A DNA stretch of 64,000 nt from Alphaproteobacteria bacterium (GTDB taxonomy: Bacteria; Pseudomonadota; Alphaproteobacteria; SHVZ01): positions 7,201-71,200 of the forward strand of contig VGEN01000001.1 of assembly GCA_016869285.1 (NCBI GenBank), written 5' to 3'. Position numbers and translations under genes: made by a program. The notes beneath the pieces were generated by a model. The model saw nothing but the letters and a program-made list of their open reading frames with translations, was not told where the DNA came from and did no database searches. Of this stretch, positions 26,190-53,214 are shown piece after piece; positions within the stretch are counted from its first letter, which is position 1, and each line of letters starts with the position of its first letter.

Positions 26190-26193
26190 GGAG

Positions 26194-34441: not shown

Positions 34442-34463
34442 CGCCTACCCCCCCCGAAACCCT

Positions 34464-35522: not shown

Positions 35523-35687
35523 CCGCCTTCAAGGGCGAAATCGCGACAGCCATGGTCGCTGCTCGACCACTTGAAAGGCCTGCCGGGCTTGCGCCCCTCG
35601 GTGCCGGTGGACTAGCCTCAACTCACCACTTCTGCGTCGAAACCGCCGCTCAAGGCCGGGTCAGCGCGGATCAACGGGGAGACCATC

Positions 35688-37355
35688 ATGACCGACAAGC
35701 TTCACCCGATCATCGAGAAGGCTGGCCGCGAATTCGCTGACGGCAAGCTCGGCCGCAGAGAGTTTCTGCGGATTGCAGTTTTGCTCGGCGTCGCCGCGCC
35801 CACCGCCTATGGCATGGTCGGCCTTGCCGCGCCGGCAATGGCCCAGGGAGCGCCAAAGAAGGGCGGCACCATCCGCCTTGGCATGCGCGTGCAGGACATA
35901 TCGAGCCCGCACACCTATTCCTGGATCGAGTCCGCGAATTCGGCCCGCCAGACCCTCGACTACATGGCTGTCACCGGCATCGACAACGTGACCCGGCCGT
36001 CGCTGGTGCAGAAGTGGGAAGCCACTCCCGACCTCAAGACCTGGACGTTGCAGCTCCGCCGCGACGTCAAGTGGCGGAAGGGTCGCCAGTTCAACGCCGA
36101 CGACGCGATCTGGAACCTGAAGCGGGTGCTCGACGACAAGACCGGCTCCTCCGTCGTCGGCCTGCTCAAGGGCTTCATCCTGACCGAGTTCGATGACGGC
36201 CAGAAGGACGCCAAGGGCAACCCGCGCAAGTCGGTCAAGCTCTGGGACGCGAATGCGATCCAGAAGGTCGACGATTTCACCGTGAAGCTCAACGGCCAGA
36301 CCGCCAACCTGGCGATCCCGGAGGCGCTCTATCACTATCCGCTGCTGATCTGCTCGCCCGAGGATGGCGGCAAGTTCGGCATCGGCAGTGACGGCACGGG
36401 CGCCTACGAGCTCGTCGAGCACGAGGTCGGCAAGCGCTCGCTCTACGTCGCCACCAAGACCGCCCACTGGAGCGGCATGGGCCCGAATGTCGACCGCTTC
36501 GAGATCATCGATCTCGGCGACGACGCGGCGGCGCAGGTCTCGGCGCTCGCCTCCAAGCAGGTCGACATGATCTACCAGGGCGCGATCTCGACCCTGCCGA
36601 CGGTCGAACGGCTGCCGCATGTCCAGGTCAACACGGTCGACAGCGGCTATACTGCCGTCGCCCGCACGCATCCGATCAAGCCATTCGACGACAAGCGGGT
36701 GCGCCAGGCGCTGCGTCATGCAACCGATACCGAGGCGGTGCTCAAGGCCGCCTATCGCGGTCTCGGCAAGCCTGGCGAGCACCATCACGTCGCCCCGGTG
36801 CATCCGGAGTACGCGAATATCGGCTTCATGAAGCAGGATATCGCCAAGGCGAAGGCCCTGCTGGCCGAGGCCGGTCACCCGAACGGCATCGACTGCCAGA
36901 TCGATTGCCGCCCCCAGCCGGACTGGGAACTCCTGGCGGTCCAGACCATGGTCGAGCAGTGGAAGGCAGCCGGCATTCGCGCCAAGATCAACGTGATGCC
37001 CTCGGCCCAGTACTGGGAGAACTGGACCAAAGTCCCGTTCGGCTTCACCACCTGGGCACACCGCCCGCTCGGCACCATGGTCCTCGGTCTCGCGTATCGT
37101 TCGGGCGCAGCCTGGAACGAATCCGCCTGGTCGAATGCCGAGTTCGACAAACTGATCACCGAGGCGGAAGGCTATCTCGATGTTGAGAAGCGCCGCGCCG
37201 TGATGGCCAAGATCCAGCGCATCATGCTCGACGAGGGCCCCGCCGTCGTCCCGCTGTGGCGTGCGGTCTTCAACTACTCGGACAAGAAGATCAAGGGCTA
37301 CAAGATCCATCCGAGCATCTACATCGACATCAAGGACCTCTGGATCGACGCCTAA
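35688..37355 (+). CDS. ABC transporter substrate-binding protein, family 5, Tat-exported
   Basis: 555 aa; twin-arginine signal GRREFLRIAVLLGVAAPTAYG...AMAQ. Confidence 0.85.
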   Translation: MTDKLHPIIEKAGREFADGKLGRREFLRIAVLLGVAAPTAYGMVGLAAPAMAQGAPKKGGTIRLGMRVQDISSPHTYSWIESANSARQTLDYMAVTGIDNVTRPSLVQKWEATPDLKTWTLQLRRDVKWRKGRQFNADDAIWNLKRVLDDKTGSSVVGLLKGFILTEFDDGQKDAKGNPRKSVKLWDANAIQKVDDFTVKLNGQTANLAIPEALYHYPLLICSPEDGGKFGIGSDGTGAYELVEHEVGKRSLYVATKTAHWSGMGPNVDRFEIIDLGDDAAAQVSALASKQVDMIYQGAISTLPTVERLPHVQVNTVDSGYTAVARTHPIKPFDDKRVRQALRHATDTEAVLKAAYRGLGKPGEHHHVAPVHPEYANIGFMKQDIAKAKALLAEAGHPNGIDCQIDCRPQPDWELLAVQTMVEQWKAAGIRAKINVMPSAQYWENWTKVPFGFTTWAHRPLGTMVLGLAYRSGAAWNESAWSNAEFDKLITEAEGYLDVEKRRAVMAKIQRIMLDEGPAVVPLWRAVFNYSDKKIKGYKIHPSIYIDIKDLWIDA

Positions 37356-37449
37356 GGCGTGGTCCCAGCGGCTTCGCCCTGCGGACGTACGACACGTCCG
37401 CAGGGCCGCCGGCCCCTTTTCAGTCCTTTAACGCCTACCGCCCGGAGCG

Positions 37450-38391
37450 GTGATGCTGCGATATTCGGCGAAGCAGCTACTGAACATGGCGCTGACGCTG
37501 TTCGCGGTGTCGTTCCTGGTCTTCGCCTTGAACGAGCTGTCGCCGGGCGACGTCACACGCAAGATCCTCGGCCCCTATGCCTCGCAGAGCCAGGTCGACC
37601 ACCTGACCCGAGAGATGGGTTTGGATCGCCCGGCCCTTGTCCGCTACTTCGAATACATGGGCAAGGCCCTGACAGGGAACTTCGGCAACTCGATCTACTA
37701 CCGCCAGCCGGTCTCGGAGCTCATGTGGGACCGTCTCGGCAACACGCTGCTGCTCGCCGCCATCTCCTTTGCCGTCATCGTACCGATTTCGGTCCTGCTC
37801 GGCGTGCTGGCCGGCATGCGCGAACGCGGCTGGTTCGACCGCGCCGTCTCGATCTTCTCCTCGATATGCGCCTCCATCCCGGAATTCGCCATGGGCGTCT
37901 TCCTGCTCGCCATCTTCGTCGTCTGGCTCGGCGTGCTGCCAGGCACCTCGCCGCTCCGCGGCGATGCCGGCTGGGCGATCTGGATGCAGTTCGTCCTGCC
38001 GGTGCTGGTCGTCACCTTCTATGACGCCGGCTATCTGATCGCGATGGTGCGCTCCTCGATGGTCGAGGTCATGCGCCAGCCCTATATCCGGACCGCGCTG
38101 CTCAAGGGCAATTCTTTCCGCAATGTCGTTGCCAAGCACGCGCTCCGCAACGCGCTGATCACGCCCTTCACCGTGATCCTGCTGCAGCTCAACTACCTCG
38201 TCTCCGGCCTCGTCGTCGTCGAGACGCTGTTCGCCTATCCCGGCTTCGGCCGGCTGATGCTCGAAGCGGCGCTGGCCAAGGACATCGCGGTGCTCGAGGC
38301 CGGCACTCTGGTCGCCGTCAGCGTCACCATGCTGACCCAGCTCTTCGGCGATCTCGGCTACATGGCTCTGGATCCGAGGATCCGCGTATGA
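37450..38391 (+). CDS. ABC transporter permease, DppB-like
   Basis: 313 aa TM protein, ...ALDPRIRV C-terminus. Confidence 0.85.
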   Translation: MMLRYSAKQLLNMALTLFAVSFLVFALNELSPGDVTRKILGPYASQSQVDHLTREMGLDRPALVRYFEYMGKALTGNFGNSIYYRQPVSELMWDRLGNTLLLAAISFAVIVPISVLLGVLAGMRERGWFDRAVSIFSSICASIPEFAMGVFLLAIFVVWLGVLPGTSPLRGDAGWAIWMQFVLPVLVVTFYDAGYLIAMVRSSMVEVMRQPYIRTALLKGNSFRNVVAKHALRNALITPFTVILLQLNYLVSGLVVVETLFAYPGFGRLMLEAALAKDIAVLEAGTLVAVSVTMLTQLFGDLGYMALDPRIRV

Positions 38392-39296
38392 CCGAGGTCA
38401 GTCACGACCTGGCGGGCGGACGCGTCGGCAGCTTCCGCGGCACGGACGCCGCCGCCGCGTCGCGCGGCTGGGCACGCAAGATCTACGATCTTCTCACCCG
38501 TTCCCCGATCGGCACGATCGGCGCCGCGATTCTGCTGACCTGGACGATCCTCGCCGTCTTCGCGCCGTGGATCGCCCCCTACTCGCCGACCAAGATCGAT
38601 CCGGCGCTGATTGCCGATCCCTACCCCTCCGCCCAGCACTGGCTCGGCGTCGATCATCTCGGCCGCGACATCCTCTCACGCCTGATCTGGGGTGCCCGCA
38701 CCGTGCTGACCGTGGCACCGACCGCCGTACTCGGCGCCGTGATCCTCGGCACCTTCCTCGGGCTTCTCGCCGGGTATCGCGGCGGCATCGTCGATGCCGT
38801 CATCATGCGGATCGGCGACACGCTACTGGCCTTCCCCAAGATCATCCTCTACCTGATCATCATCGCCAAATTCGGTGCCTCGGCCTTCAACATCATCGCC
38901 GTGATCACGCTCTCCTCGGCGCCGATCATCGCGCGCATCGTCCGCGGCGTGACGCTCGACATCAAGAACCGCGACTATGTCGCCGCCGCTCGCATGCGCG
39001 GCGAGAGCGCCTTCTTCATCATGTTTGTCGAGATCCTGCCGAACGCTCGAGGCCCGCTGATCGTCGATTTCTTCCTGAGGCTGGGATATACGACGATCGC
39101 GATCGGCGTGCTTGGCTTCCTCGGCGTCGGGCTGCCGCCGCCGGACCCCGACTGGGGCGGCATGGTCAAGGAAGCCTACGGCATGATCTTCGTGTGGCCG
39201 CACATGACGATCATCCCGTCGCTCGCCATATCCTCGCTCGTCATCGGCGCCAACTTCCTTGCGACCGGGCTTCGCGAAGCCTCGCTCGATGGCTGA
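38388..39296 (+). CDS. ABC transporter permease, DppC-like
   Basis: 302 aa, 6 TM, overlaps upstream stop by 4 bp. Confidence 0.85.
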   Translation: MTEVSHDLAGGRVGSFRGTDAAAASRGWARKIYDLLTRSPIGTIGAAILLTWTILAVFAPWIAPYSPTKIDPALIADPYPSAQHWLGVDHLGRDILSRLIWGARTVLTVAPTAVLGAVILGTFLGLLAGYRGGIVDAVIMRIGDTLLAFPKIILYLIIIAKFGASAFNIIAVITLSSAPIIARIVRGVTLDIKNRDYVAAARMRGESAFFIMFVEILPNARGPLIVDFFLRLGYTTIAIGVLGFLGVGLPPPDPDWGGMVKEAYGMIFVWPHMTIIPSLAISSLVIGANFLATGLREASLDG

Positions 39297-41343
39297 AATC
39301 CTCGCGTTCGAGCATGCCTCGATCGCCTATGACGGGCGTGCCGGCCGCCAGATCATCCTGAACGACGTCGATTTCTCGATCGGCGAGGGCGAAGCGCTCG
39401 GCCTCGTCGGCGAGTCCAGCTGCGGCAAGTCCACCGTGGCGCTCGCCGCCATGCGTTACCTTCCGCGCGGCATGAGCGTCATCGACGGCCGCATCCGCGT
39501 CGAAGGCCGCGACATCGCCGGGCTTACCGACCGCGAGCTCTCGCGCATCCGCGGCAACCGGATCGCCATGGTCTACCAGGACCCGATGTCGAGCCTGAAC
39601 CCGGTGATGCCGATCGGCAAGCAGCTCATGGAAGTCCCGCTGCTTCATGGCGAGACCGACGAAAACGCCGCGTTCCGCCGTGCCGTCGCGATGCTCGAAG
39701 AAGTCCGCCTCCCCGCCGCCGCGGCGATGATGGAGCGCTACCCGCACCAGCTCTCCGGCGGCCAGCAGCAGCGTGTCGTCATCGCCATGGCACTGATGGC
39801 GAAGCCCGCACTCCTGATCATGGACGAGCCGACCACCGGCCTCGACGTCACCATCGAGGCCGCGATCCTGGAGCTGGTCCGCGAGCTTCGCGCCAAGTTT
39901 GGTACGGCGATCCTGTTCATCTCGCACAACCTCGGCACGGTCGCGCGCATCTGCGACCGAATTGGCGTGCTCTATGCCGGGCGCATGGTCGAGACCGGCC
40001 GGATCGGTGCGGTCTTCCGCTCCCCCTCACACCCCTACACACGCGGCCTGCTCGGCGCGCTGCCGCGCCTGAGCGGCGGAGGACGCCGCGGCCGGCTTCG
40101 ACCGATCGAAGGCACCATCGCCGCCGCCGATCGCGCCCGGCCGGGTTGCGCCTTCGCGCCGCGCTGCAGCTTTGCCGCCCGCCACGAATGCGAAGAGCGT
40201 CCGATCCTGATGGTCGAGCTCGGCGACGGGCATCTTGCCCGCTGCGCGCGGCTCGACGCCGTCCGCGCCAGCGCCGAAGACGATCGTGCGGCCGCAGCTT
40301 CTGCAGCCACGGATGGTGCTCCCATCGTCCTCCGTGTCCGCAAGCTCAGCAAGGAGTACAAGCTGACCGGACTCTTCGGCGGCGAGAAGAAGGGCGTCGT
40401 CCGCGCCGTGACCGATGTCGATCTCGATGCCCGCGCCGGCGAAACGCTGGCGATCGTCGGCGAGTCGGGCTGCGGTAAGTCGACGCTCGCCCGCATCGTC
40501 TCGGGCCTGCTCGCCGGTACCTCGGGCGAGGTCAAGCTCGGCGAGACCGATCTGGCGAAGCTCGAAGTCGATGACCGCCCGCCCGAGATTCGTCGTCAAA
40601 TCCAGATGGTGTTCCAGAATCCGGACTCAACGCTGAATCCCAGCCACTCCATCGCCTACGCCCTGTCGCGGCCGCTGCGCATGCTGCGCAACCTTGCCAG
40701 CGGCGACGCCAAGACCGAAGTGTCGAAGCTCCTGGCCCAGGTGCGGCTACCGGTTGAAGTGGCCGAGCGCATGCCGCACCAGCTCTCCGGCGGCCAGCGC
40801 CAGCGGGTGGCCATCGCCCGCGCGCTCGCCGGCAAGCCGAAACTCGTCGTCGCCGATGAGCCGGTCTCCGCCCTCGACGTCTCGGTCCAGGCGGCGATCC
40901 TCAATCTGCTCGGCGAGCTGCTCGAGCAGTCGCGGCTCGGCCTCGTGCTGATCTCGCACGACCTGGCCCTGGTCCGGCACATGGCAGACTGGGTCGCGGT
41001 CATGTATCTCGGCCGCGTCGTCGAGTACGGGCCGGTCGCGCAGGTCTTCAGCCCGCCCTTCCATCCCTACACCGAAGCGCTGCTGCGGGCCGCACCGACG
41101 CCCGATCCCGATGCGGCGCCGCCGACGGCGGCGCTTGAAGGCATGATGCCGAGCCCGACCGAGATCATCGTCGGCTGCGCCTTCGCCAGCCGCTGCCCGA
41201 GCCGTATCGCCGAGCAGTGCGATACGACGCCGCCGCCGGTGCGCCAATTCGGCGAGCACCGGATCGCCTGCCACCTGGAGCTTGGCCGTCAGGCGCCTGC
41301 AGAACGCGGCGGCCGCACCGAAATCCGGTCGTCGATCTCGTAA
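39289..41343 (+). CDS. tandem (duplicated) ABC ATP-binding protein, DppD-DppF fusion
   Basis: About 685 aa with two complete NBDs: Walker [10 protein letters not shown] and GESGCGKST, signatures [12 protein letters not shown] and [12 protein letters not shown], Walker B IMDEPT and VVADEP. Confidence 0.85.
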
Positions 41344-41684
41344 TAGTCGCCGGCATCCTCGGCGAAGATCTGCAACGTTGTCCTGAGGCCGGTCGGTTCG
41401 TCCAGGCTGCCGGCGGCGACCGAAACCATGTCCGTGCCGAGCCGTTCCCAGAACAGGCTCGAACCGCAGCCGCGGCAGAAGCCGCGCCGGGCGAGCTCCG
41501 AGGAACGGAACCAGGCGACGTCGCCCTCGACCTTCAGGTCGACCTTGGCGACGCGTGTGTACGCGCCGACATGACCGTGCCAGCGGCGGCATTGGCTGCA
41601 ATGGCAGACCACGACGTTCCTCAAGCCACCGCTCAGGCGGAAGCGGATCGCGCCACAAAGGCACTGCCCCTCGATTTCGCTCAT
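41289..41684 (-). CDS. GFA family protein (glutathione-dependent formaldehyde-activating enzyme / CENP-V-like zinc protein)
   Basis: 131 aa from internal ATG; Cys pattern CLCGAIRF...CHCSQCRR...CRGCGS typical of GFA domain. Confidence 0.7.
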   Translation of the reverse strand: MSEIEGQCLCGAIRFRLSGGLRNVVVCHCSQCRRWHGHVGAYTRVAKVDLKVEGDVAWFRSSELARRGFCRGCGSSLFWERLGTDMVSVAAGSLDEPTGLRTTLQIFAEDAGDYYEIDDRISVRPPRSAGA

Positions 41685-42283
41685 GCTCGTGTCTCCGTCA
41701 TCGTCGCGTAGACTTCGACATTGCCGGTCCAGCAATAGAGCGCCAGCAGCGGCTCGTCGCTCGTCCGCATGGCATGGCGAACCATCGGCGTGTGATGGAT
41801 GACCGAGCCAGGCGGCCTCATTCGCCAGCCCTCCCCTTCCCGCCACCATTCCGCGTTACCGGCGACGACGTGATAGATTTCCTCGGCCGGATGCGCGTGG
41901 TCCGGGTAGTGCATCTCCGGCCCCAGCAGCAGCAGGCCGACGAGCAGATCGGTGCTCTCGACCGGGCGTCCAGGCCCGATCAGCTCGACATAGCCGTAAC
42001 GGTCGTCGTAGCCGGGCCCCATGCCCTCGACCGAGTAGTTCGGATTCTGCAGCCAGGTCGCCAACGGCTCGACCGCCGCAAAGGCCTCGGCGACTTCGGC
42101 CAGCGGCCCGCGACGGCCGAGTTCGACCGCCTGCCCGACGAATTTCGCCACCGGTTTGCGGCCAGCCCGGCCGAGTTGCAGATCCCGGTCCTTGACAACG
42201 GCGATGCGCGCGCTTGCAACCGCGAGCGGACCTTCGCTTGCTTCGCGATAGACCGCCTCGATCGCGCGCAGCAGCGTCAGCAT
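41681..42283 (-). CDS. cupin domain protein (possible DddL/DddQ/DddW-like DMSP-lyase-type cupin)
   Basis: 200 aa from internal ATG; cupin metal motif HYPDHAHPAEEIYHVVAG...H; ATGA overlap with GFA gene. Confidence 0.5.
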   Translation of the reverse strand: MLTLLRAIEAVYREASEGPLAVASARIAVVKDRDLQLGRAGRKPVAKFVGQAVELGRRGPLAEVAEAFAAVEPLATWLQNPNYSVEGMGPGYDDRYGYVELIGPGRPVESTDLLVGLLLLGPEMHYPDHAHPAEEIYHVVAGNAEWWREGEGWRMRPPGSVIHHTPMVRHAMRTSDEPLLALYCWTGNVEVYATMTETRA

Positions 42284-42285
42284 TG

Positions 42286-43101
42286 TCAGGTGATCTGCGC
42301 CAAGCCTCGCGCCTCGGCGGCCTGCGCCCAGTCCTCGGTGATCTGGTAGCCGGACTCGGGAATGCGCGCGAAGCCGAGGATGCAAAGATCGTCGCGCAGC
42401 GCCGCCTGGCCCGGATCGTCGCCGAAGCTGGTGAGCGTCTCGCCGAGACGCTCCACGATGTCGGATGGCGCGCCTTCCGAGGCCATGAAAGCCGGAATCG
42501 GCACAACGTCTGTCGAGGCTATGATGCGAGTGCGCCCCGCCACCTCCGGCCAGTGCCGGCGCAGCAGCGCATAGGCGAAGGAGTCGAGGGGGCCGACATC
42601 GGTTTTGCCTTCGACGATCGCCTCGACCATCAGGCGCGGCGTCCTCAAGGGTCCGACGATCTCGCGATAGAGCATCTTGGTCACGCCCTTGCGGTAGGAA
42701 AGCAGATGGTGCCGCGGCGCGTTGTAGCCCGAATGCGAGTCCGGGATCGTGTAAGCGAAACGATGGCCGAAGGTGTCTTCCAGCGTCTTGAACGGCGCGT
42801 CGTCGCGGACGACGAAGTGCGAGCAGTAGACCGCTCGTCCCCGGGCATAGGCAGCGCTCGGGATCGGCGCGGCGACGACCTGGTGGATCGCGCCGTAGCG
42901 CATGAAGGGCCAACCGCACATGAAAGTGCAGGCGAGGTCCTTCCTGGACCACAGCTCGTCGAGCGAGGCCGGGAAGGCATGGTCGATCACCGTCATGTCG
43001 AAGCCCGACCGCTCCTGGAGCCAGGCGAAGAGCCGCTTCCACGCCGCGGCCGCGCCCGGCGCGACCGAGTACATGCGGGCATTGGCGATGAGATCGCTCA
43101 T
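42286..43101 (-). CDS. PhnD/SsuA-like periplasmic-binding-protein-fold protein lacking a signal peptide
   Basis: 271 aa from internal ATG MSDLIANARMYSVAP...; type-II PBP-like composition, no N-terminal hydrophobic signal; ATGA overlap with DMGDH paralog 2. Confidence 0.55.
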   Translation of the reverse strand: MSDLIANARMYSVAPGAAAAWKRLFAWLQERSGFDMTVIDHAFPASLDELWSRKDLACTFMCGWPFMRYGAIHQVVAAPIPSAAYARGRAVYCSHFVVRDDAPFKTLEDTFGHRFAYTIPDSHSGYNAPRHHLLSYRKGVTKMLYREIVGPLRTPRLMVEAIVEGKTDVGPLDSFAYALLRRHWPEVAGRTRIIASTDVVPIPAFMASEGAPSDIVERLGETLTSFGDDPGQAALRDDLCILGFARIPESGYQITEDWAQAAEARGLAQIT

Positions 43102-45509
43102 CCGCGCTGGCGACCGCCATTGGCGTCGAAGAGCGGCTGGGTCTGCACGATCGCCAGGCAGGCTTTGCCGAAGATCAGCACCGAGAGCTCGGCGCCGTCC
43201 TTGGCGTAGTCGGCATGGACATAGGCCATCGCCATGCTCTTGCCGGCCCAATGCGCATAGCCACCCGAAGTCACCTGGCCGACCGCTTCGCCGTTCCGCA
43301 TCACGCTCTCATAGCCGACGACTTCGGTATCGGTATCGACAATCAGCGGCACCAGCTTCTTCTTCGGTGCTGCCGCTCGGTCTTTATGCGCCGCCTCACG
43401 GCCGATGAAGTCCGGCTTGTCATAAGCGACGAAACGGTCGAGGCCACTTTCCATCGGCGTGTAGTCCGGACGGAACTCGCGGAAGAAGGCGCCATAGGCC
43501 TTTTCCAGGCGCAGCGACATCAGCGCACGGTTGCCGAAATGGCGGAGGCCGAGATCCTTGCCGGCCCCGACCAGCGCCTCGTAGAGCGTTACCTGATAGT
43601 CGGGCGTCACCCAGATCTCGTAGCCGAGATCACCGGTGTAGCTGGCACGGAGCACCGTCGCCGGCGCCAGGCCGACAACCATCTCGCGCGCGGCGAAGAA
43701 CTTGAAGGCCTGGGCCGAGACATCCTCGAAGACGAGGCGCTGGAGCAGCTCGCGCGACTTCGGGCCGGCGATCATGAAGCCGGTCAGCGCATGCGGCAGC
43801 GGGCGGATATAGGTTCCGGCCGGCGGCGGATGCTTCTCGAACCAGCGCATGTGGTAGATCTCGGCGACGCCGGAACCGATCATCAGGAAACGGTCCTCGG
43901 CGAGCCTCGCCACCGAGAAGTCGCCGATGATCGTGCCGCGCGGGTTCAGCATCGGCGCCAGCACCATGCGGCCCGGCTTCGGCATCTTGTTGGCGAGCAT
44001 CCGGTTGAGCCAGGACTCGGCCTCCGGACCTACCACCTCGTATTTGCCGAACCCCGAGATCTCCATGAGACCGACGGCGTTGCGGATCGCGTGGCACTCC
44101 TCCCTGACGATCGGGAAAGCGTTGGATCGGCGATAGGTCGGGTTCTCGTAGGGCTCCATGCCTTTCGGCGCATACCAGAGCGCGACCTCGAGGCCGAAAT
44201 TGGCGCCGAACACGGCGCCTGCCTCCTTGAGCCGGTCATAGACCGGCGTGCGGCGCAGCGGGCGTGCGGCCGGCATCTCCTCGTTCGGATAAGCGATGCG
44301 GAAGCGCCGGCTGTAATTCTCCGGCACCTTGATCAGCGTATACTGGTGTGTGGCGAACTTGCCGAAGCGCGCTACGTCCATGGCGAAGATGTCGGAGCCT
44401 GGATCGCCCTCGACCATCCAGCGCGAGAGCGCAAGGCCGACGCCGCCCCCTTGCGCGAAGCCGGCCATGACGCCGCAAGCCGACCAGTAGTTTCGCAGGC
44501 CCCGGACCGGCCCGACCAGCGGGTTGCCGTCGGGGGCGAAGGTGAAGGGGCCGTTGACCACCTTCTTGATCCCGGCGCGGCCGACCGCCGGGAAATGCTT
44601 GAAGCCGATCTCGAGATGCGGCGTCAGACGGTCGAGATCGTCCGGCAGCAGCGCCATCGAGAATTCCCAGGGCGTGGTGTGCGGCGACCACACCCGGCAA
44701 TCCTTCTCATAGGTGCCGAGCAACACGCCCTTACCTTCCTGGCGCATGTAGATCTCGCCGAAATAATCGGTGGTCGGCAGGACCTCGCGGCCATGCGCCA
44801 CGACCTCGGGGATCTCCTCGGTCACCACATACATGTGCTCCATTGCCAGCACCGGCAGCTCGATGCCCGCCATGCGGCCGACTTCGCGCGCCCAGAGGCC
44901 GGCAGCGTTGACGACATGCTCGGCATGCACATTGCCCTTGTCGGTGATCACGTCCCAGGAACCGTCGCGGCGCTGCTTCAGCGCCGAGACCTGGGTAAAG
45001 CGATGCACCTCGGCGCCCGCCTTGCGCGCGGCGATGGCATAGGCGTGAGCCACGCCGTTCGGGTCGACATGGCCGCCATCGAGGCGATGCAAGGCGCCGA
45101 CGAACTGCCCAGGGTCGAGCAGAGGATTGAGTTTCCTGGCCTCGGCCGGCGAGATCAGATGCGTCTCCATGCCGAGATACTTGGCACGCGAGTGCATGAG
45201 CTTGAGGTTGTCGAAGATCTCGTCGGTAGCGGCGACGACCATGTTGCCGGTGGCGTGGATGCCGCAGCTCTGGCCGGAGATCCGCTCGATCTCGCGATAG
45301 AGGTCGATCGTGTACTTCTGCAGCCGCGAGACGTTGGCGTCCGAATTGTAGGTATGCACGCTGGCCGCCGCGTGCCAGGTCGAACCCGAGGTGAGCTCGT
45401 GCTTCTCGAACAGCGCGATGTCGGTCCAACCGAGCTTGGTCAGATGGTAGAGAATGCTGGCGCCGACGACCCCGCCGCCGATCACGGCCACACGATACTC
45501 GGTCTTCAC
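43098..45509 (-). CDS. dimethylglycine dehydrogenase / sarcosine dehydrogenase family protein, paralog 2
   Basis: 803 aa; VAVIGGGVVGASILYHLT FAD fold plus GcvT-like C-terminal domain; colinear with paralog 1. Confidence 0.85.
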   Translation of the reverse strand: MKTEYRVAVIGGGVVGASILYHLTKLGWTDIALFEKHELTSGSTWHAAASVHTYNSDANVSRLQKYTIDLYREIERISGQSCGIHATGNMVVAATDEIFDNLKLMHSRAKYLGMETHLISPAEARKLNPLLDPGQFVGALHRLDGGHVDPNGVAHAYAIAARKAGAEVHRFTQVSALKQRRDGSWDVITDKGNVHAEHVVNAAGLWAREVGRMAGIELPVLAMEHMYVVTEEIPEVVAHGREVLPTTDYFGEIYMRQEGKGVLLGTYEKDCRVWSPHTTPWEFSMALLPDDLDRLTPHLEIGFKHFPAVGRAGIKKVVNGPFTFAPDGNPLVGPVRGLRNYWSACGVMAGFAQGGGVGLALSRWMVEGDPGSDIFAMDVARFGKFATHQYTLIKVPENYSRRFRIAYPNEEMPAARPLRRTPVYDRLKEAGAVFGANFGLEVALWYAPKGMEPYENPTYRRSNAFPIVREECHAIRNAVGLMEISGFGKYEVVGPEAESWLNRMLANKMPKPGRMVLAPMLNPRGTIIGDFSVARLAEDRFLMIGSGVAEIYHMRWFEKHPPPAGTYIRPLPHALTGFMIAGPKSRELLQRLVFEDVSAQAFKFFAAREMVVGLAPATVLRASYTGDLGYEIWVTPDYQVTLYEALVGAGKDLGLRHFGNRALMSLRLEKAYGAFFREFRPDYTPMESGLDRFVAYDKPDFIGREAAHKDRAAAPKKKLVPLIVDTDTEVVGYESVMRNGEAVGQVTSGGYAHWAGKSMAMAYVHADYAKDGAELSVLIFGKACLAIVQTQPLFDANGGRQRG

Positions 45510-45553
45510 TCAGATCCCCTGCACATCGACTGGCTCACGGGCAATACGGCAAT

Positions 45554-46513
45554 TCACTCCGACCGCGCAACCGCTCCGGCATCGCCGGCCCCGCGCCGGC
45601 CGCGACGGCGGCCGCCCGCCCCCTCCCCCGCAGCAGCCGGGTCACGGTTGGCGCGGAGCCAGGCCATGCAGTCGGGGTCGAAGCCATTCAGCGTATTGGC
45701 GGCGCGGATCGCATCCATATCCTCCTTGTGCAGCGGGTTCATGATGGCGCTGGTCATGCCGATGGCGGCGGCCATCGACAGGAAATGCGCATTCATGACC
45801 CGGCGGTTCGGGATGCCGAAGGAGATATTCGAGGCACCGCAGGTGGTGTTCACCTTGAGCTCCTCGCGCAGCCGGCGGACGAGGCGAAAGACCTGGGCGC
45901 CGGCCGAGTTGAGCGCGCCGATCGGCATCACCAGCGGGTCGATGACGATGTCGGCAGCCTTGATGCCGTGATCCGCGGCACGCTCGACGATCTTCTTGGC
46001 GACGGCGAAGCGAACATCGGGGTCGTAGCTGATGCCGGTCTCGTCGTTGGAGATCGCAACCACCGGCACATTGTACTTCTTCACCAGCGGCAGGATGGTC
46101 TCGAGCCGGTCTTCCTCGCCGGTTACCGAATTGACCAAGGGGCGCCCCTTGGCGACCGCGAGACCGGCCGCCAGCGCCGCCGGCACGGAGGAGTCGATCG
46201 AGAGCGGCACGTCGACCAGCGACTGCACCAGCTCGATGGTCTTGGCCAGCAGCGGCGGCTCGGTGAGGTTGGGATCGACCGCGGTGACGCCGGCATTGAC
46301 GTCGAGAACCAGCGCACCGGCCGCGACCTGGGCCAGCGCGTCGGCGGTCACGGTCGAGAAGTCGCCGGCCATCATCTCGGCCGCAAGCTTCTTGCGGCCG
46401 GTCGGGTTGATACGCTCACCGATCACGCAGAATGGCTGATTGAAGCCGATGATTGCGGTCTTGGTTGCTGAATGCAGGACAGTCTCGGTCACGGAATTCC
46501 CCTTCCCACCCAC
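45554..46513 (-). CDS. pterin-binding methyltransferase (methyltetrahydrofolate:corrinoid methyltransferase, MtrH/AcsE/MtgA-like)
   Basis: N-terminal IIGERINPTGRKK motif typical of pterin-binding (DHPS-like) methyltransferases; ORF-track start is GTG; an internal GTG at 46492 overlapping the MTHFR stop is an alternative. Confidence 0.75.
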   Translation of the reverse strand: MGGKGNSVTETVLHSATKTAIIGFNQPFCVIGERINPTGRKKLAAEMMAGDFSTVTADALAQVAAGALVLDVNAGVTAVDPNLTEPPLLAKTIELVQSLVDVPLSIDSSVPAALAAGLAVAKGRPLVNSVTGEEDRLETILPLVKKYNVPVVAISNDETGISYDPDVRFAVAKKIVERAADHGIKAADIVIDPLVMPIGALNSAGAQVFRLVRRLREELKVNTTCGASNISFGIPNRRVMNAHFLSMAAAIGMTSAIMNPLHKEDMDAIRAANTLNGFDPDCMAWLRANRDPAAAGEGAGGRRRGRRGAGDAGAVARSE

Positions 46514-47382
46514 GAACCTCGTCCAGTCAGCCAGGCCGTCGCGGCGGCTAGCCCACCGAAAGCATACACATGCAGCTGCCGGATCAGCCGCGCCTCGCCG
46601 GCAAGGACTCTACGCTCAATCGCGCGGACATGCGCCTCGGGCTCATAGTTGCCGAGCAGCGAGGTCAGCTGAGTGCCGCGCTTGAGCGCGAAGGACATCG
46701 AGGTCCGCACGCCGCACAGCGCCGCGAATTTGAGAAGCCGCGTCATGGTCGTCGGCCCGGCGACGCCGAGATGGATCGGCAGGCTCACCCCTTCATCGCG
46801 AAGGCCGTTGGCCCAGGCGATGGCCAGGCTCGGATCGAAGCCGAATTGCGTGACCAGCCGGACATCGATGCCGGTGCGCTTGGCGAAGTCAATCTTCCAA
46901 CGCAGCGCCTCGACGATGACGGTCGGCGCGATATCGGGCGAGCCCTCCGGGTGCCCGGCGACGCCGATGTGACGGATTCCGTATTGCTCGAACAATCCGG
47001 TCGACAGCACATCCATCGACGAGCCGAAGGGGCCGAGCGGTCTGGCTATGTCGCCGCCGATGATGAGCGCGTCGTCGATCGCTGCCGCCTCCGCCATCGC
47101 GCGCAGACGCTCCTCGATCTCCTCCAGGCTCCTCAGACGACGGCAGGCGATGTGCGGGACGGGGCGAAGGCCGGCCTCGGCGAGGATGCGGCAGGCGCTG
47201 CCCCACTCCGAAACCGGCGTGTCGCCGCCGTCGACCAGATAGATCCGGGTCGCCTCCGGGATCGCCTTCAGCGGCGACGGTTCCTTGATGACGCCTTTGG
47301 GCGACAGCTCGATCGAGGCCGGCAGTGCCCGGCTATCCTGTCGGCCTGCGATCTCGACCATCGGTCCTCGAACCTCGCTCAT
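46489..47382 (-). CDS. methylenetetrahydrofolate reductase (MetF-like)
   Basis: 297 aa TIM-barrel flavoprotein pattern of MTHFR family (..PHIACRRL..; ..LVTQFGFD..). Confidence 0.75.
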   Translation of the reverse strand: MSEVRGPMVEIAGRQDSRALPASIELSPKGVIKEPSPLKAIPEATRIYLVDGGDTPVSEWGSACRILAEAGLRPVPHIACRRLRSLEEIEERLRAMAEAAAIDDALIIGGDIARPLGPFGSSMDVLSTGLFEQYGIRHIGVAGHPEGSPDIAPTVIVEALRWKIDFAKRTGIDVRLVTQFGFDPSLAIAWANGLRDEGVSLPIHLGVAGPTTMTRLLKFAALCGVRTSMSFALKRGTQLTSLLGNYEPEAHVRAIERRVLAGEARLIRQLHVYAFGGLAAATAWLTGRGSWVGRGIP

Positions 47383-47472
47383 GCCGCCTCAATCGCATGG
47401 CCGGGCACGGGCAGCGGATTGGCCCCCGACCGGTTCCCTTCCATTGGCGACAAGTTCCTACTCCGTTCGCGC

Positions 47473-49113
47473 CTAGCCGACGCGATCAAGCCTTATATCC
47501 TTCATGCGATCGGAGCTGACCAGCAGGCCGACGACTCTGCCGCCATCGCGTACCACGCGCACGGCATGGACAACGCGCCAGCCGGGCCAGAGCATGGTGG
47601 TGCCGATAAAGCGGTCAGGTTCGAGCGCCTCCAGCGAAACCAGGGCGCCACGGTGGAAGCCGGGCCCGAGCTTGAGCACAAGGCCGCCATCGACGAGGCG
47701 TAGCTCGAATGTGGTCGCCAGCTCCTCGCTGGCATAGCGCCCGACCAGCGCCGACAGGGCCGACGCCGAAGGCCGATACTCGGGCGCCGGATCGAAGACG
47801 CAGCGCTGTCCGCCGAAATCCATGCGGATCACCGGCCCGCCATTCGCCCTTTTCTCGATCTCGGCCGTCGTATCGACATTCGCCCAGCTCTCGAGGAAGC
47901 GGTTGCCGCCGATCGGCCGAAGCATGAGCGCATGCCCGTGCTTGTCCGCCTCGATACCGGACTCGGTGACTTTCAGAGTCAGGACTTCGCCGGAGTCGCG
48001 GTCGACATAGCGACCATTGACCGCGGAGAGGTCGAGTCCGGGGATCGCAACCTGCTTCATGCGCTCCTTGCCAAGCGTCACCGGCGAAGGCTCGGTAAAC
48101 TCATCGGCCAGCGCCACATCGGCGATCTCGGTGAAACGACGGTATGGATCGGCATCGTCACGGTTGCAGAGGAGCACGACGCCGAAGTCGACGCCCGGCA
48201 TATACGCGAAGACCGAGCGGAAACCCGGCAGCCCGCCGCCATGCGTCCAGAGATCGAGTCCGCGATACTTTCGGACGCCGAGACCGAGGCCGTAGTTGGT
48301 CGGGCTGCCATCGGCGAGCTTGCCTGTCGTCGTCATGTGGCGGACGAGCTTCTCCTTGCCGATACCGCCGGCGCGGAGCATGCCCTGCCAGCGGACGAGA
48401 TCGGGCACCGAGCTGATGAGCCCACCGGCACCGCCCAGACCGATGGTGAAGATACCCTTGCGCCAGCCGCCGCCCGGCTTCGGCAGGTAGGAGCTGGCCA
48501 GGTCCTCGGCGACATCGTCGGCATCGTCGCGCATTCGCGTCGCCGCGATGCCGAGCGGCACCAGCAGCTCGTCGTCCAGGAACGTCATGAAGGGCTTGCC
48601 CGACCGGCGCTCGACCACCAACGCCATCAGGATGAAGTTGATGTTGGTGTAGACGTTGCGCGCCCCGACCGGGAAGCTGAAGTGGCGCTGGTTGAAGGCG
48701 ATGTCGAGATAGTCTTGGACCGTACGCGCCTGATCGGTGCCGACGCCGGAGAGCTGCATCAACTCCCAGGAGTCGCGGAGCCCGCTGGTCATGCCGAGAA
48801 GGCGGCGCAACGGCACCGGCCGGTCGACCTTCAGCTCCGGTACGATACCCCGCACATCCTCGTCGATATCGAGCCGGCCGCGTTCGACCAGAAGGGCCGA
48901 TGCCGCACCGACGAAGGTCTTGGTGATCGAGGCGATGTGAAAACGCGACTTCAGACTGACCGGCACGCCAAGCTCGATGCTGGCGAGGCCAAAGCAGCGC
49001 GAATGCACGATCTCGCCGCCGCGGACCAGAGCCAGCGCGCCTCCCGGCTGACCGGCCGCGTCCCAGCCGGCGAAGAGATTGTCGATCGCGTTGGTACGCA
49101 GAGTTGTCGGCAT
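47473..49113 (-). CDS. beta-lactamase-fold serine hydrolase (class C / D-aminopeptidase-like) with C-terminal extension
   Basis: 546 aa; SxxK active-site motif SITK near N-terminus, class C-like fold. Confidence 0.75.
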   Translation of the reverse strand: MPTTLRTNAIDNLFAGWDAAGQPGGALALVRGGEIVHSRCFGLASIELGVPVSLKSRFHIASITKTFVGAASALLVERGRLDIDEDVRGIVPELKVDRPVPLRRLLGMTSGLRDSWELMQLSGVGTDQARTVQDYLDIAFNQRHFSFPVGARNVYTNINFILMALVVERRSGKPFMTFLDDELLVPLGIAATRMRDDADDVAEDLASSYLPKPGGGWRKGIFTIGLGGAGGLISSVPDLVRWQGMLRAGGIGKEKLVRHMTTTGKLADGSPTNYGLGLGVRKYRGLDLWTHGGGLPGFRSVFAYMPGVDFGVVLLCNRDDADPYRRFTEIADVALADEFTEPSPVTLGKERMKQVAIPGLDLSAVNGRYVDRDSGEVLTLKVTESGIEADKHGHALMLRPIGGNRFLESWANVDTTAEIEKRANGGPVIRMDFGGQRCVFDPAPEYRPSASALSALVGRYASEELATTFELRLVDGGLVLKLGPGFHRGALVSLEALEPDRFIGTTMLWPGWRVVHAVRVVRDGGRVVGLLVSSDRMKDIRLDRVG

Positions 49114-49142: not shown

Positions 49143-49282
49143 GACAGCCCCTCGCTTCGCTCGCCCCCACCCCATCCCTCCGCCGCTTCGCGGGAGAGGG
49201 GGCACGAGAAGGCAAGCGCCTCGTGTCCCCTCTCCCGCGAAGCGGCGGAGGGATGGGGAGGGGGAGAGCGCGGCGAGGGTCG
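49143..49282. repeat. REP/RIME-like palindromic element, copy B
   Basis: About 60-bp imperfect inverted repeat arms (...CCCCATCCCTCCGCCGCTTCGCGGGAGAGGGGG / CTCGTGTCCCCTCTCCCGCGAAGCGGCGGAGGGATGGGG...) around centre AAGGCAAGCGC. Confidence 0.7.
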
Positions 49283-52384: not shown

Positions 52385-53209
52385 TCAGATCGAAGGAAAA
52401 GGCCAGACGCGAGGGAACAGAGCGCAATCCATTCTGTCGCCGTGCTTCAGGCCCGGATCGGATGTGGGGATCGCGACCTCGCCGGAATGCACGCAGTAGC
52501 GCGCATCGTCGCCGGTCCAGCGCGTCGCCAGCGCGCGGCGCCGATGCGTCATCGAGGCGTTGCCCGGCGCTCCATGGACGATCATCGCCTGGAAGACGAG
52601 GCAGTCGCCCGGCTCCATCTCATAGGCGACGATGTCGTAGGCCGAGCGGTCGACATCGATATCCGGCATCGCCTCCAGCGCGCGCTCGCGATAGGGGCTG
52701 CCATCGCTGAAGTGGTAAGGCAGGAAAGTGCGGTTCCACTCATGCGAGCCGCGGACATACTCTACTGCGGTCGGCTTCGGGACGGGATCGAAGGGAAGCC
52801 AGATCGAGCAGACCTGGCGGCCCGAAACCGCCCAATAGGGCTGGTCCTGGTGCCAGGGCGTGCGCTCGGCCGTTCCTGGCTCCTTCACCAGGAGCTGGTC
52901 GTAGAAGAAGTTGACCTTGGACGCGCCCATGACGCGCGCGGCGATCTGAGCCGCCGGCGACTCGAAGACGAAGCGGCGGAAACGCGGCAACCGCTGCCAC
53001 ATATCGAGATCGCCGAAGAAGCCGCCGGGGTTGCCGGGCTTGGTATAGCTCTCTCCATGCCGGCCGGGCTTCGCCATCGCCTCGGCGACGGCCGCCGCCA
53101 TGAAATCGATCCAGTCGCGATCGAACATGCGGCGGAGGCACACGACGCCGTCGCGCTCATAGGCGGCAACCTCGGCCTCGCCGATCGGGCTCAGCGGGTC
53201 GCGGTTCAT
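52385..53209 (-). CDS. phytanoyl-CoA dioxygenase (PhyH) family Fe(II)/2OG oxygenase
   Basis: 274 aa; HxD motif in WHQDQPYW and distal His (IVHGAPGN region). Confidence 0.75.
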   Translation of the reverse strand: MNRDPLSPIGEAEVAAYERDGVVCLRRMFDRDWIDFMAAAVAEAMAKPGRHGESYTKPGNPGGFFGDLDMWQRLPRFRRFVFESPAAQIAARVMGASKVNFFYDQLLVKEPGTAERTPWHQDQPYWAVSGRQVCSIWLPFDPVPKPTAVEYVRGSHEWNRTFLPYHFSDGSPYRERALEAMPDIDVDRSAYDIVAYEMEPGDCLVFQAMIVHGAPGNASMTHRRRALATRWTGDDARYCVHSGEVAIPTSDPGLKHGDRMDCALFPRVWPFPSI

Positions 53210-53214
53210 CGGTT

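Follow-up and report, generated by a model that had tools for sequence, protein, structure and literature searches.

Seven co-directional genes lie on the minus strand at 41289–49113 of the window (the whole 64,000-nt stretch of alphaproteobacterial DNA that was analyzed), and they raise the question of whether one operon here serves a corrinoid methyl-transfer system or whether two separate gene sets have been joined. All seven open reading frames (7/7) are present with coding-type GC3 values of 0.75–0.86, Pfam bears out the domains that a first-pass annotation had named, and genes called independently on a nearly identical metagenome contig agree in length (803, 271, 200 and 131 aa). We favor, with a probability of about 0.65, the reading that the transcription unit is a lineage-specific fusion of metF2-mtgD-DMGDH1, the THF end of the aerobic MtgBCDE system, with a module encoding a PBP-like protein, a cupin of the DMSP-lyase-like (cupin-DLL) superfamily and a GFA-family protein.

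The probable upstream limit of this unit is marked by the spacer behind blaC (47473–49113, minus strand), which encodes a 546-aa, D-aminopeptidase-like hydrolase of the beta-lactamase fold with a C-terminal extension (PF00144, 186.8 bits; NCBIfam D-aminopeptidase, 131 bits, under the cut-off of 443). The gap between blaC and the MTHFR gene is 90 nt in the window and 113 to 860 nt in relatives, and it is unalignable apart from a 27-nt block, TGTCGCCAATGGAAGGGAACCGGTCGG (47426–47452, minus strand), a candidate regulatory or promoter region upstream of metF2 that is kept in five contigs, the window, L006, L001, L010 and L012. This block is the sole zero-mismatch site in the window, one further match (52606–52631) having 3 mismatches. 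Because the block is conserved upstream of the MTHFR gene despite the variable spacers, the transcription unit would start at that gene, and it most likely runs from metF2 (47382) through GFA (41289). The S9-DUF2817-blaC order is retained in L001, L006 and L010, and blaC is probably a transcription unit of its own, grouped with the S9 and DUF2817 peptidase genes that lie upstream of it rather than heading the seven-gene unit first proposed.

Downstream of this point, the genes for MTHFR and the pterin methyltransferase (MT) share a GTGA overlap, provided that the MT starts at GTG 46492 (the start used in a 94%-identical relative), and the MT/DMGDH1 junction is a 44-nt gap with the ribosome-binding site AGGGGA. 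The DMGDH1/PBP and cupin/GFA junctions are ATGA overlaps and a 2-nt gap parts PBP from cupin. Where start-stop overlaps had been counted at four of six junctions, there are thus three 4-nt overlaps and one near-abutment, with translational coupling at three junctions. Gaps of at most 44 nt, together with the absence of terminator-like sites inside the gene string, suggest that the six genes are co-transcribed. Their order is the same in four related contigs, with protein identities of 64–96% over the six genes.

The pterin MT (45554–46492, minus strand; 312 aa from GTG 46492; PF00809) is a pterin-binding TIM barrel of the MtgD type, the methyl-corrinoid:THF methyltransferases. It scores 380 bits against NF005719 (cut-off 259) and matches the solved structures PDB 4o0q (E = 6e-39) and MeTr 2yci (5e-35); its motif, earlier quoted as IIGERINPTGRKK, actually reads VIGERINPTGRKK. 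The protein is 75.7% identical to that of an S. meliloti gene in an MttB/cobalamin-binding/DUF1638/PF13769/MTHFR/ASKHA cluster and 74–75% identical to those of Rhodobium and Cohaesibacter genes inside mtgC-DUF1638-...-ramA-mttB clusters. Its neighbor, the MetF2-like MTHFR (46489–47382, minus strand; 297 aa; GAGG ribosome-binding site before ATG 47382), reaches just 26.4 bits against PF02219 (cut-off 24) and is related to the type 4 enzymes, its best solved relative being S6MTHFR (PDB 7xg9, E = 8e-49), whereas ordinary MTHFRs match at about 1e-6. S6MTHFR of Sphingobium SYK-6 oxidizes CH3-THF, and enzymes of its type pair with THF-dependent demethylases, CmuAB included (PMC11868366). MetF2 differs from it in carrying Gly-Gly at the site of Leu48-Pro49, the NADH-blocking motif, and Ala in place of Pro268. 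Since the L48G/P49G substitutions raise NADH oxidation by S6MTHFR 38-fold (PMC11868366), the electron partner of MetF2 and its CH3-THF-oxidizing direction are only putative; by homology, it may oxidize CH3-THF to CH2-THF. The third gene, DMGDH1 (43098–45509, minus strand; DAO+FAO_M+GCV_T+GCV_T_C), encodes an 803-aa DMGDH-family FAD/THF-dependent N-demethylase that is 56% identical to its paralogue DMGDH2 at 32015–34444. Mammalian DMGDH scores alike for the two (E = 8e-177 for DMGDH1 against the rat and human enzymes, 9e-180 for DMGDH2 against the rat enzyme), which counted against assigning dimethylglycine to either.

A full Mtg set is found elsewhere in the window: two non-Pyl MttB genes, MtgC, DUF1638, RamA, PF13769, MtgE and SoxB/SoxA. 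On the plus strand, mtgE (homocysteine S-methyltransferase), a DddP-like M24 gene, mtgC (corrinoid protein), DUF1638 and mttB2 follow one another within the ORF limits 26107–31852 (identified by Pfam, and by tblastn for DUF1638), and the SoxB-like (DAO) and SoxA-like (Fer2_4 + SO_alpha_A3 + GCV_T + GCV_T_C) sarcosine oxidase subunits occupy 14966–19582. On the minus strand lie the PF13769 small protein with the RACo/RamA-type corrinoid reductive activase (24162–26493; Pfam) and MttB1 (20231–22060; PF06253, 686 bits, an uninterrupted ORF). MtgC shares 80% identity with the S. meliloti mtg cluster, and RamA shares 63% with the ASKHA protein encoded next to mtgD in S. meliloti. Both window MttB genes are just 40–45% identical to the mtgC-adjacent MttB of S. 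meliloti, Cohaesibacter and Rhodobium, which are 59–67% identical among themselves, so glycine betaine is only a candidate substrate. In the pathway we propose, a non-Pyl MttB enzyme would move a methyl group from a quaternary amine to MtgC; MtgD would hand it to THF or, in reverse and with MtgE, supply a split methionine synthase; and MetF2 would convert CH3-THF to CH2-THF. A DMGDH-family enzyme would then take off the next N-methyl group oxidatively, directly onto THF, and the last would fall to SoxB/SoxA at 15–19.6 kb.

The three genes downstream of DMGDH1 are of another kind. The first (42286–43101, minus strand) encodes a 271-aa protein of the PhnD/AioX fold (PF12974, Phosphonate-bd, 94 bits) that is classed as cytoplasmic: it has no signal peptide, and in all 22 homologues aligned the sequence begins with the first beta-strand. 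It scores 42.7 bits against the PhnD equivalog, under the cut-off of 261, and its AF2 model (pLDDT 91.5) has AioX as top Foldseek match (TM 0.82). The 200-aa cupin (41681–42283, minus strand) finds its best family in PF16867 'DMSP_lyase' (121.7 bits), a membership that the earlier annotation had missed. Residues H129, H131, E135, Y137 and H164 are invariant across 30 homologues, an NCBIfam search with the cupin gave no match, and its alignments to DddQ structures (5cu1, 1e-20; 4la2, 3.5e-14) span only 125–136 of the 200 residues; judged by its sequence, it is a DddQ-like paralogue, not a DddQ orthologue. The zinc/cysteine protein of the GFA family (41289–41684, minus strand; 131 aa; PF04828, 73 bits) ends the unit, the 3' end of its gene sharing 55 nt with the convergent gene for an ABC ATPase.

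PBP and cupin form a conserved module in their own right, often with GFA, a pattern that the earlier annotation had likewise missed. The arrangement PBP-(desaturase)-cupin-(GFA)-(M24) also exists where mtg genes are missing, in L007/L013, L014, L015, L018/19, L052, L008, L070 and the P0163 locus, PBP and cupin stand together with desaturase, GFA and M24 in L019, and for 18 cupin clusters and PBP clusters the longest contigs are of identical size. Elsewhere in alphaproteobacteria the module stands alone, usually accompanied by genes for a membrane desaturase-like protein and a DddP-like M24 protein, and often beside the same two neighbors as here: an Opp-type ABC importer (35616–41343, plus strand, convergent on the operon; Pfam identifies an SBP_bac_5 binding protein, two permeases and a fused double ATPase) and a 2OG-Fe(II) oxygenase/DMGDH2 pair (32015–35528, minus strand; Pfam). 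Importer orthologues (67–81% identical) adjoin PBP-desaturase-cupin in L007, L014, L015 and L052; the oxygenase (69–71%) and DMGDH2 (82%) adjoin the same ABC genes in L015 and L052, the pair thus accompanying the importer in other lineages; and the P0163 locus contains both gene families of the pair and is flanked by the same importer gene families (at family level only). The importer is therefore a syntenic partner of the module in other lineages. In the window the ancestral module is split, each half lying within an mtg operon: PBP-cupin-GFA after mtgD-DMGDH1 and M24, 72–74% identical to the M24 after cupin-GFA in L007, L019 and L053, between mtgE and mtgC. The assignment of PBP, cupin and GFA to formaldehyde handling is not supported, given the DddQ-like nature of the cupin and the autonomy of PBP and cupin in L008 and L070, where mtg genes are absent. 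We infer that the substrate or product of the module is a small anionic methyl-onium or zwitterionic compound, the methyl groups of which would enter the Mtg/THF pool, with GFA as a possible formaldehyde or thiol safeguard.

A single seven-gene operon including blaC, forming a dedicated THF arm in which PBP, cupin and GFA serve oxidative demethylation and formaldehyde detoxification by a route unusual for an aerobe, is unlikely. Its gene content and direction are correct, its wiring matches the Mtg model in the literature and a GFA 50% identical to that of the window occurs in the Cohaesibacter mtg cluster, but the variable blaC spacer, the conserved motif upstream of metF2, the autonomous module and the published, widespread nature of the route speak against it. 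The clean split of a THF arm from a homocysteine arm is not supported either, since MtgD is bidirectional: in R. pomeroyi it is genetically needed both for glycine betaine demethylation and for methionine synthesis (PMC12478193), so that 'MetH fragment' and 'THF arm' are no true alternatives.

Chance could instead have placed a housekeeping PBP-cupin-GFA set, unrelated to C1 metabolism, downstream of DMGDH1 in this clade. PBP and cupin do lie beside mur genes in L070 and beside pet and dac genes in L019, and they stand alone in L008; in this lineage, their link with the catabolism of methyl groups may be incidental. Accident is nonetheless decidedly unlikely given the ATGA overlap shared by DMGDH1 and PBP, the arrangement kept in contigs whose cupins have diverged to 69–86%, the M24 partner likewise inside an mtg operon, and the recurrence of the module, in at least four other contigs, beside the oxygenase-DMGDH2 pair and an importer.

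We give slim odds to a catabolic island for DMSP or another sulfonium compound, with cupin and M24 as true DMSP lyases and a divergent MttB demethylating DMSP onto the corrinoid ahead of MtgD and MetF2. The PF16867 match, the full conservation of metal ligands and Tyr, the similarity of M24 to the DddP structure 4b28 (E = 9e-100), the divergence of the window MttB paralogues from the mtgC-linked type and the presence of two 'Ddd-like' families in one operon in relatives fit such an island. Against it, the cupin lacks an NCBIfam match and aligns with DddQ over part of its length, M24 scores 415 bits against the NCBIfam DddP cut-off of 600, the annotated window yielded no acrylate-utilization genes, the nearest relative is a MAG with the label 'K_Offshore_80m' (read here as lake water column), and the DMSP-lyase activities of DddQ and DddP have been argued to be promiscuous (bioRxiv 10.1101/161257, 10.1101/168930). 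Slimmer still are the odds of the (hydroxy)proline betaine pathway proposed by Lei et al. for dddQ neighborhoods with mandelate-racemase-like and DMGDH-like genes: the cupin is the second gene after one of the DMGDH family, with PBP between, and an MR_MLE gene is present (23020–24165), but that gene adjoins MttB1, 18 kb from a cupin that is itself a paralogue of DddQ, and its best solved relatives are putative mandelate racemases and galactonate/galactarate dehydratases, none (0) labelled proline-betaine epimerase.

The fusion of an Mtg THF end with the PBP-cupin-GFA module thus remains our preferred reading, and its first half has a close published counterpart. The aerobic MtgBCDE corrinoid system, metF2-mtgD included, a B12-dependent means by which aerobic bacteria demethylate betaine-type compounds, was described by Mausz et al. 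(PNAS 2025; PMC12478193), with genetic and proteomic data on MtgC, MtgD and MetF2 from R. pomeroyi, and the MtgBCD + MetF2 model passes the methyl group from MttB through corrinoid protein, pterin MT and CH3-THF to MTHFR and CH2-THF (PMC12478193). The same series of steps had been proposed for this DNA, and it fits that model, the 75.7% identity to the S. meliloti MT and the S6MTHFR relationship. It had also been called unusual outside strict anaerobes, yet aerobes with such routes are published (cmuAB + metF in Methylorubrum extorquens CM4, PMC11868366; Ruegeria pomeroyi, PMC12478193), and more than 8000 homologues of the MT, many from Alphaproteobacteria, score E <= 1e-20. The MTHFR/pterin MT pair matches metF2-mtgD of MtgBCDE and the window holds a full Mtg set; the proposed wiring is therefore probably right, though already published and widespread.

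Across the window, where G+C lies between 64 and 70%, a third-position GC of 0.75-0.9 marks the real genes. Seven such genes occupy the minus strand from 49113 to 41289. They encode, in order, a beta-lactamase-fold protein of 546 aa (blaC, 49113-47473), an MTHFR-like protein of 297 aa (MetF2, 47382-46489), a pterin-binding methyltransferase of about 310 aa (MtgD, 46492-45554), a DAO/FAO_M/GcvT/GcvT_C enzyme of 803 aa (DMGDH1, 45509-43098), a PF12974 protein of 271 aa (the PBP-like protein, 43101-42286), a cupin of 200 aa (42283-41681) and a GFA protein of 131 aa (41684-41289). The last four genes have the same lengths in independent gene calls of a near-identical metagenome contig, and a 100% match of the PBP-like protein on an ENA metagenome contig confirms the calls; an exact look-up of the MTHFR protein returned no match. 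Of the six junctions, taken from 5' to 3', three are gaps (90 nt at the first, 44 nt at the third and 2 nt at the fifth) and three are overlaps (GTGA at the second, ATGA at the fourth and sixth). The start of mtgD was taken from a 94%-identical relative, in which metF2 and mtgD overlap by 4 nt, so that three start-stop overlaps are counted rather than the four of the first-pass annotation, whose list of genes is otherwise sound.

That annotation had also placed all seven genes in one operon, a boundary that we redraw. The order S9 peptidase, DUF2817, beta-lactamase-fold protein, MTHFR is retained in four related contigs, with a spacer ahead of the MTHFR gene that varies from 113 to 860 nt. The spacers cannot be aligned except for a 27-nt block upstream of metF2 (47426-47452, minus strand), which is conserved in five of five sequences and whose pattern occurs at one further site of the window (52606-52631, with 3 mismatches). 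The block is a candidate operator or promoter, and we read it as an independent regulatory region of the MTHFR gene and hence blaC as a separate unit. The product of blaC resembles D-aminopeptidases but scores far under the NCBIfam cut-off of that family. Between DUF2817 and blaC lies a 131-nt palindrome (49149-49279; 60-nt arms, 92% complementary) that resembles an intergenic repeat of the REP or MITE kind, and a 22-nt piece of it recurs at 53226-53247, at the junction of a PhyH and a Rieske gene. At the other end of the string the GFA gene and a convergent ABC ATPase gene share the last 55 nt of their 3' ends (41289-41343), as they do in the close relative L001. Scans for sigma-70 promoter and intrinsic-terminator patterns were uninformative in this sequence of 66% GC, and Rfam and tRNA scans, which included cobalamin and SAM riboswitches, gave no matches. 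From the gene arrangement, metF2 through GFA would be expected to form one co-transcribed unit.

MtgD ties this unit to the aerobic corrinoid methyltransferase system Mtg. It matches PF00809 and, with 380 bits against a cut-off of 259, NCBIfam NF005719. Its best solved relatives are 4o0q (E = 6e-39; deposited as a dihydropteroate synthase, it is the methyl-corrinoid:THF methyltransferase of the Desulfitobacterium hafniense O-demethylase), 2yci (5e-35; the acetogen MeTr) and the folate domain of MetH. It is a stand-alone protein of about 310 aa, 74-76% identical and orthologous to the methyltransferases of mtgC-linked clusters in Rhodobium orientis, Cohaesibacter gelatinilyticus and Sinorhizobium meliloti, which run corrinoid protein, DUF1638, PF13769, (MTHFR), methyltransferase, RACo/ASKHA activase, MttB. 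The neighboring metF paralogue overlaps mtgD through GTGA in the window and through an ATGA-type junction in L001, and a 43%-identical MTHFR gene occupies the same place in Cohaesibacter. The remaining components, MtgC, a RamA-type activase, DUF1638 and MtgE, are all encoded within 24-30.3 kb, where PF13769 and RACo occupy 26493-24162 (minus strand) and MtgE, MtgC and DUF1638 lie between 26.1 and 30.3 kb. Two MttB paralogues of family PF06253, both uninterrupted ORFs, are encoded at 20231-22060 on the minus strand (MttB1) and at about 30300-31852 on the plus strand (MttB2).

In aerobic Ruegeria pomeroyi, glycine betaine is demethylated onto THF by MtgB (of the MttB family), MtgC and MtgD, and MetF2, encoded beside mtgD, is the most strongly induced protein and the proposed oxidizer of CH3-THF (Mausz et al., PNAS 2025, PMC12478193). 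That work, on R. pomeroyi DSS-3 and S. meliloti, established the aerobic corrinoid glycine betaine methyltransferase as also a split methionine synthase, with methionine synthesis in R. pomeroyi requiring MtgC and MtgD together with MtgE, and it located genes for later demethylation steps near mtgBCD in several marine lineages (PMC12478193). Since the window holds every component of this published system, the wiring proposed at first pass, from corrinoid protein to THF to MTHFR, is correct. The claim that such a route is unusual in aerobes is not borne out, as the system is published and widespread (for MtgD alone, over 8000 homologues reach E <= 1e-20), and the division into a THF arm and a homocysteine arm is too clean because MtgD serves both. 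Taken as a whole, the first-pass annotation was largely right in what it observed and right in outline in what it made of it, and it went astray on rarity, on the operon boundary and, as set out below, on the last three genes.

The first methyl donor may differ from that of the published system. MttB1 and MttB2 are 52% identical to each other and only 40-45% identical to the mtgC-linked MttBs of S. meliloti, Cohaesibacter and Rhodobium, which are 59-67% identical among themselves. Set against the 63-80% identity of MtgC, MtgD and RamA, this divergence suggests that glycine betaine is not the substrate, or not the only one.

MetF2 is barely recognized by Pfam (26.4 bits), and by far its nearest solved relative is S6MTHFR of Sphingobium SYK-6 (PDB 7xg9, E = 8e-49; ordinary MTHFRs reach about 1e-6). 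This enzyme of Sphingobium lignivorans SYK-6 defines the type 4 MTHFRs, which include homologues from CM4 and Ndbn-20; they oxidize CH3-THF, react scantly with NADH and are paired with CH3-THF-forming demethylases, among them CmuAB of an aerobic methylotroph (PMC11868366). In S6MTHFR numbering, Arg78 and the helix alpha8 motif residues Phe215 and Cys219 are retained in MetF2, where the window reads RLLKFAALCGV. Arg78, Cys219 and the FGGL loop are common to the window and its four close relatives, with Val and FGGV in Cohaesibacter; the residue at position 215 is always aromatic, Phe in the window and Tyr in several relatives. In the loop beta8-alpha11 the window has Ala-Phe-Gly-Gly-Leu for Pro268-Phe-Gly-Gly-Leu and has thus lost the proline, which the PFGGV of Cohaesibacter retains ahead of its terminal valine. 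The third motif is the NADH-excluding Leu48-Pro49 of loop beta2-alpha3, where MetF2 carries Gly-Gly (residues 52-53) and its relatives Ala-Gly, Ser-Gly or Leu-Gly. The substitution L48G/P49G raises NADH oxidation by S6MTHFR 38-fold (PMC11868366). Taken together, the three motifs make the kinship of MetF2 with the type 4 MTHFRs clear at the level of sequence and place it outside the strict type. Any direction or electron partner assigned to MetF2 is an inference, and the Gly-Gly variant of its NADH-blocking loop makes it well suited to testing what determines the direction in which type 4 MTHFRs run.

Enzymes for the later N-methyl groups are also at hand. DMGDH1 combines DAO, FAO_M, a GcvT folate domain and GcvT_C, and hits the DMGDH of rat and human with E = 8e-177. 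Its placement after mtgD fits the later demethylation steps encoded near mtgBCD by the lineages of Mausz et al. (PMC12478193). A paralogue, DMGDH2 (32015-34444), is 56% identical to it; the two score equally against solved DMGDH, which makes the comparison uninformative, and sequence alone cannot assign dimethylglycine use to either. SoxB-like and SoxA-like sarcosine oxidase genes at 14966-19582 (plus strand), beside MttB1, possibly round off a three-step betaine demethylation set within one window.

Farther out, PhyH dioxygenase, Rieske oxygenase alpha subunit and aldo-keto reductase genes at 52385-55965, whose order is kept in L001, may lie within the same catabolic island. The region 374-12471, with a second Opp-type ABC system, an S15 X-Pro dipeptidyl peptidase, a CN hydrolase, DUF885 and a GFO/IDH/MocA oxidoreductase, has the uptake and hydrolysis of peptides or small amides as its theme. 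An MR_MLE gene was considered as a hydroxyproline-betaine epimerase, an assignment that would have favored a proline-betaine pathway, and set aside, its best relatives being putative mandelate racemases and acid-sugar dehydratases.

The last three genes of the string were tied at first pass to oxidative demethylation and formaldehyde detoxification. That reading fails: the cupin belongs to PF16867, and the PBP-cupin pair recurs elsewhere as a unit of its own. The best family of the cupin is PF16867, "DMSP lyase" (121.7 bits against a cut-off of 27), and its residues H129, H131, E135, Y137 and H164, which form a His-x-His-x3-Glu-x-Tyr motif with a distal His, are invariant across 30 homologues. 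The PBP-like protein has the PF12974 fold; its predicted model (pLDDT 91.5) takes the AioX/ArrX/PhnD fold with a TM of about 0.8, and its Ser-x-Ser-Gly anion-loop-like motif (DSHSGY) is invariant among the aligned homologues. It falls far short of the PhnD equivalog (42.7 bits against 261), a signal peptide is found in none of 22 aligned homologues, none of the loci examined showed a phnC or phnE partner, and its neighbors encode cytoplasmic enzymes rather than a cognate transporter or sensor. A fold search with the model returned just the expected PhnD/AioX/PtxB fold and no clue to the ligand, and a literature search on ligand binding by AioX, the nearest solved relative, gave no primary paper. 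The GFA protein matches PF04828 (73.2 bits against 24.3) and shows Cys-rich CxC and CxxC motifs in translation; no NCBIfam equivalog matches it.

Locus look-ups and a metagenome scan give the wider context of this module. Among full-length cupin relatives (48-86% identity) a PBP-like gene almost always precedes the cupin. The two are usually separated by a membrane FA_desaturase-family gene with three His boxes, as in the other-lineage contigs L007 (9037-9996), L014, L015, L016, L017, L018/19 and L052; the window and its close relatives lack this gene. Only in the window's own clade is the PBP gene preceded by metF2-mtgD-DMGDH1. Downstream of the cupin there is often a GFA gene and, after it, an M24 gene. 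In several lineages the module adjoins an Opp-type ABC importer and a 2OG-oxygenase/DMGDH2 pair, as it does in the window at 32-41.3 kb. For eighteen cupin clusters and PBP clusters the longest contigs are identical in length, several of them just 2-7 kb. A scan of genome contigs with the cupin found one locus only, in a MAG. A more distant group of cupins, whose similarity is confined to residues 60-196 and whose contigs are mostly short, lacks a PBP partner in the sequence available. In the cultured soil bacterium S. meliloti, a distant PF16867 cupin annotated "dimethylsulfoniopropionate lyase" lies beside hutH on pSymA (contig L071, 7150-13107) in an Opp-type ABC operon ordered binding protein, cupin, permease, permease, fused ATPase; as this transporter is only 26-40% identical to the Opp-type importer of the window, we treat the association as analogy, not orthology.

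A further member of the module is found in the other mtg operon of the window. Between mtgE and mtgC lies a DddP-like M24 gene (27614-28906, plus strand), 72-74% identical to the M24 genes that follow cupin and GFA in the other-lineage contigs L007, L019 and L053. In this lineage, then, an ancestral operon of the type PBP-(desaturase)-cupin-GFA-M24 has its two halves inside different mtg operons. In the literature searched we found no description of DddQ-like and DddP-like paralogues in one operon, or joined to a corrinoid system.

We consider, at roughly one chance in four, that the PhnD-fold protein and PF16867 cupin, usually with the desaturase-like, GFA and DddP-like M24 proteins, constitute an uncharacterized and widely conserved alphaproteobacterial enzyme system whose placement suggests, as native substrate or product, a methyl-onium zwitterion (some betaine or sulfonium compound, though neither DMSP nor glycine betaine) whose methyl groups would enter the corrinoid/THF pool. 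Each of three alternatives seems to us less likely than the working view of the module given below. Catabolism of DMSP itself would suit the family names of the cupin and the M24 protein. Against orthology of the cupin to a validated DMSP lyase stand the lack of any NCBIfam name or match, an alignment to the DddQ structure 5cu1 that reaches 1e-20 with only 77 bits over residues 61-196, and a different gene context; the M24 protein scores 415 bits for NCBIfam DddP, under the cut-off of 600. Mere juxtaposition of module and mtg genes, also the less probable reading, would agree with other settings of the module, among housekeeping genes (L019, L070) or as a bare PBP-cupin pair (L008); it would have to account for module members in both mtg operons. 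Catabolism of proline betaine, finally, would suit the DMGDH-family gene near the cupin but is again the lesser prospect, there being, unlike in dddQ neighborhoods, no HpbD-like racemase near the window cupin.

As the most likely course of the methyl groups, MttB would methylate MtgC, and MtgD would pass the methyl group to THF, and in the reverse direction for methionine synthesis; CH3-THF would then be oxidized by MetF2, and the remaining N-methyl groups would reach THF through the DMGDH-type and Sox enzymes. For the MttB, MtgD, MetF2 and DMGDH/Sox steps the support is homology and published genetics in other organisms. As a working view, the PBP/cupin/GFA module would handle a small anionic onium compound tied to this methyl flux, with GFA as a formaldehyde or thiol safeguard, a role suggested by the Cohaesibacter mtg cluster, which has a GFA gene without a cupin.

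The aerobic corrinoid-THF-MTHFR route being already known, the window is a complete and compact instance of it, of use chiefly for comparison. What is new is that the Mtg system is physically coupled to the PBP-like/cupin-DLL/GFA module, that a second mtg operon holds the DddP-like partner of this module, and that MetF2 carries a variant NADH loop. The DddQ-like and DddP-like families are both annotated as "DMSP lyase" across marine and soil genomes, although it has been argued that they act on DMSP promiscuously; in the present case paralogues from the two families share a conserved operon and are linked to the catabolism of methyl groups. If the proposal is true, it would provide a first lead from genomics to the "unknown native function" of the two families. 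A functional link would name a missing substrate class for both and would be a reason not to tally such genes as DMS producers in metagenomes.

Comparison with known systems places each part of this arrangement. The PBP-like protein shares its fold with the periplasmic oxyanion-binding proteins PhnD, PtxB, AioX and ArrX, and differs from them in having no signal peptide and in being translationally coupled to cytoplasmic enzymes. The cupin shares with DddQ and the cupin-DLL family (Lei et al., bioRxiv 10.1101/161257) the fold and the metal-ligand/Tyr motif, and has, as reported for dddQ, a DMGDH-family neighbor (10.1101/161257; also noted in 10.1101/168930). Unlike DddQ, it aligns to DddQ structures over part of its length only (61-196) and has a cytoplasmic PF12974 partner, a pairing that we did not find reported for dddQ. 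The M24 protein resembles DddP, of the M24 DMSP lyase family, by its match to DddP structures (E = 9e-100), and is embedded in mtg or cupin operons rather than in the conserved neighborhood of DddP (10.1101/168930). MetF2, like S6MTHFR, is coupled to a CH3-THF-producing methyltransferase, its partner being a corrinoid system where that of S6MTHFR is LigM or DesA. The chloromethane pathway of Methylorubrum extorquens CM4 (cmuA/cmuB and metF) follows the same logic in an aerobe, from methyl-corrinoid to THF to CH3-THF oxidized by a type 4 MTHFR (PMC11868366), with another methyl donor and another first methyltransferase, CmuA instead of MttB. Closest of all is the Mtg system of R. pomeroyi and S. 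meliloti: every protein family of it is also in the window, metF2 lies beside mtgD, identity to the S. meliloti cluster is 80% for MtgC, 75% for MtgD and 63% for RamA, and downstream demethylases are co-located as in the marine lineages of Mausz et al. Unlike those clusters, the window holds mtgD and metF2 some 14-16 kb from mtgC, ramA and mttB, fused to DMGDH1-PBP-cupin-GFA, and carries a DddP-like M24 gene between mtgE and mtgC.
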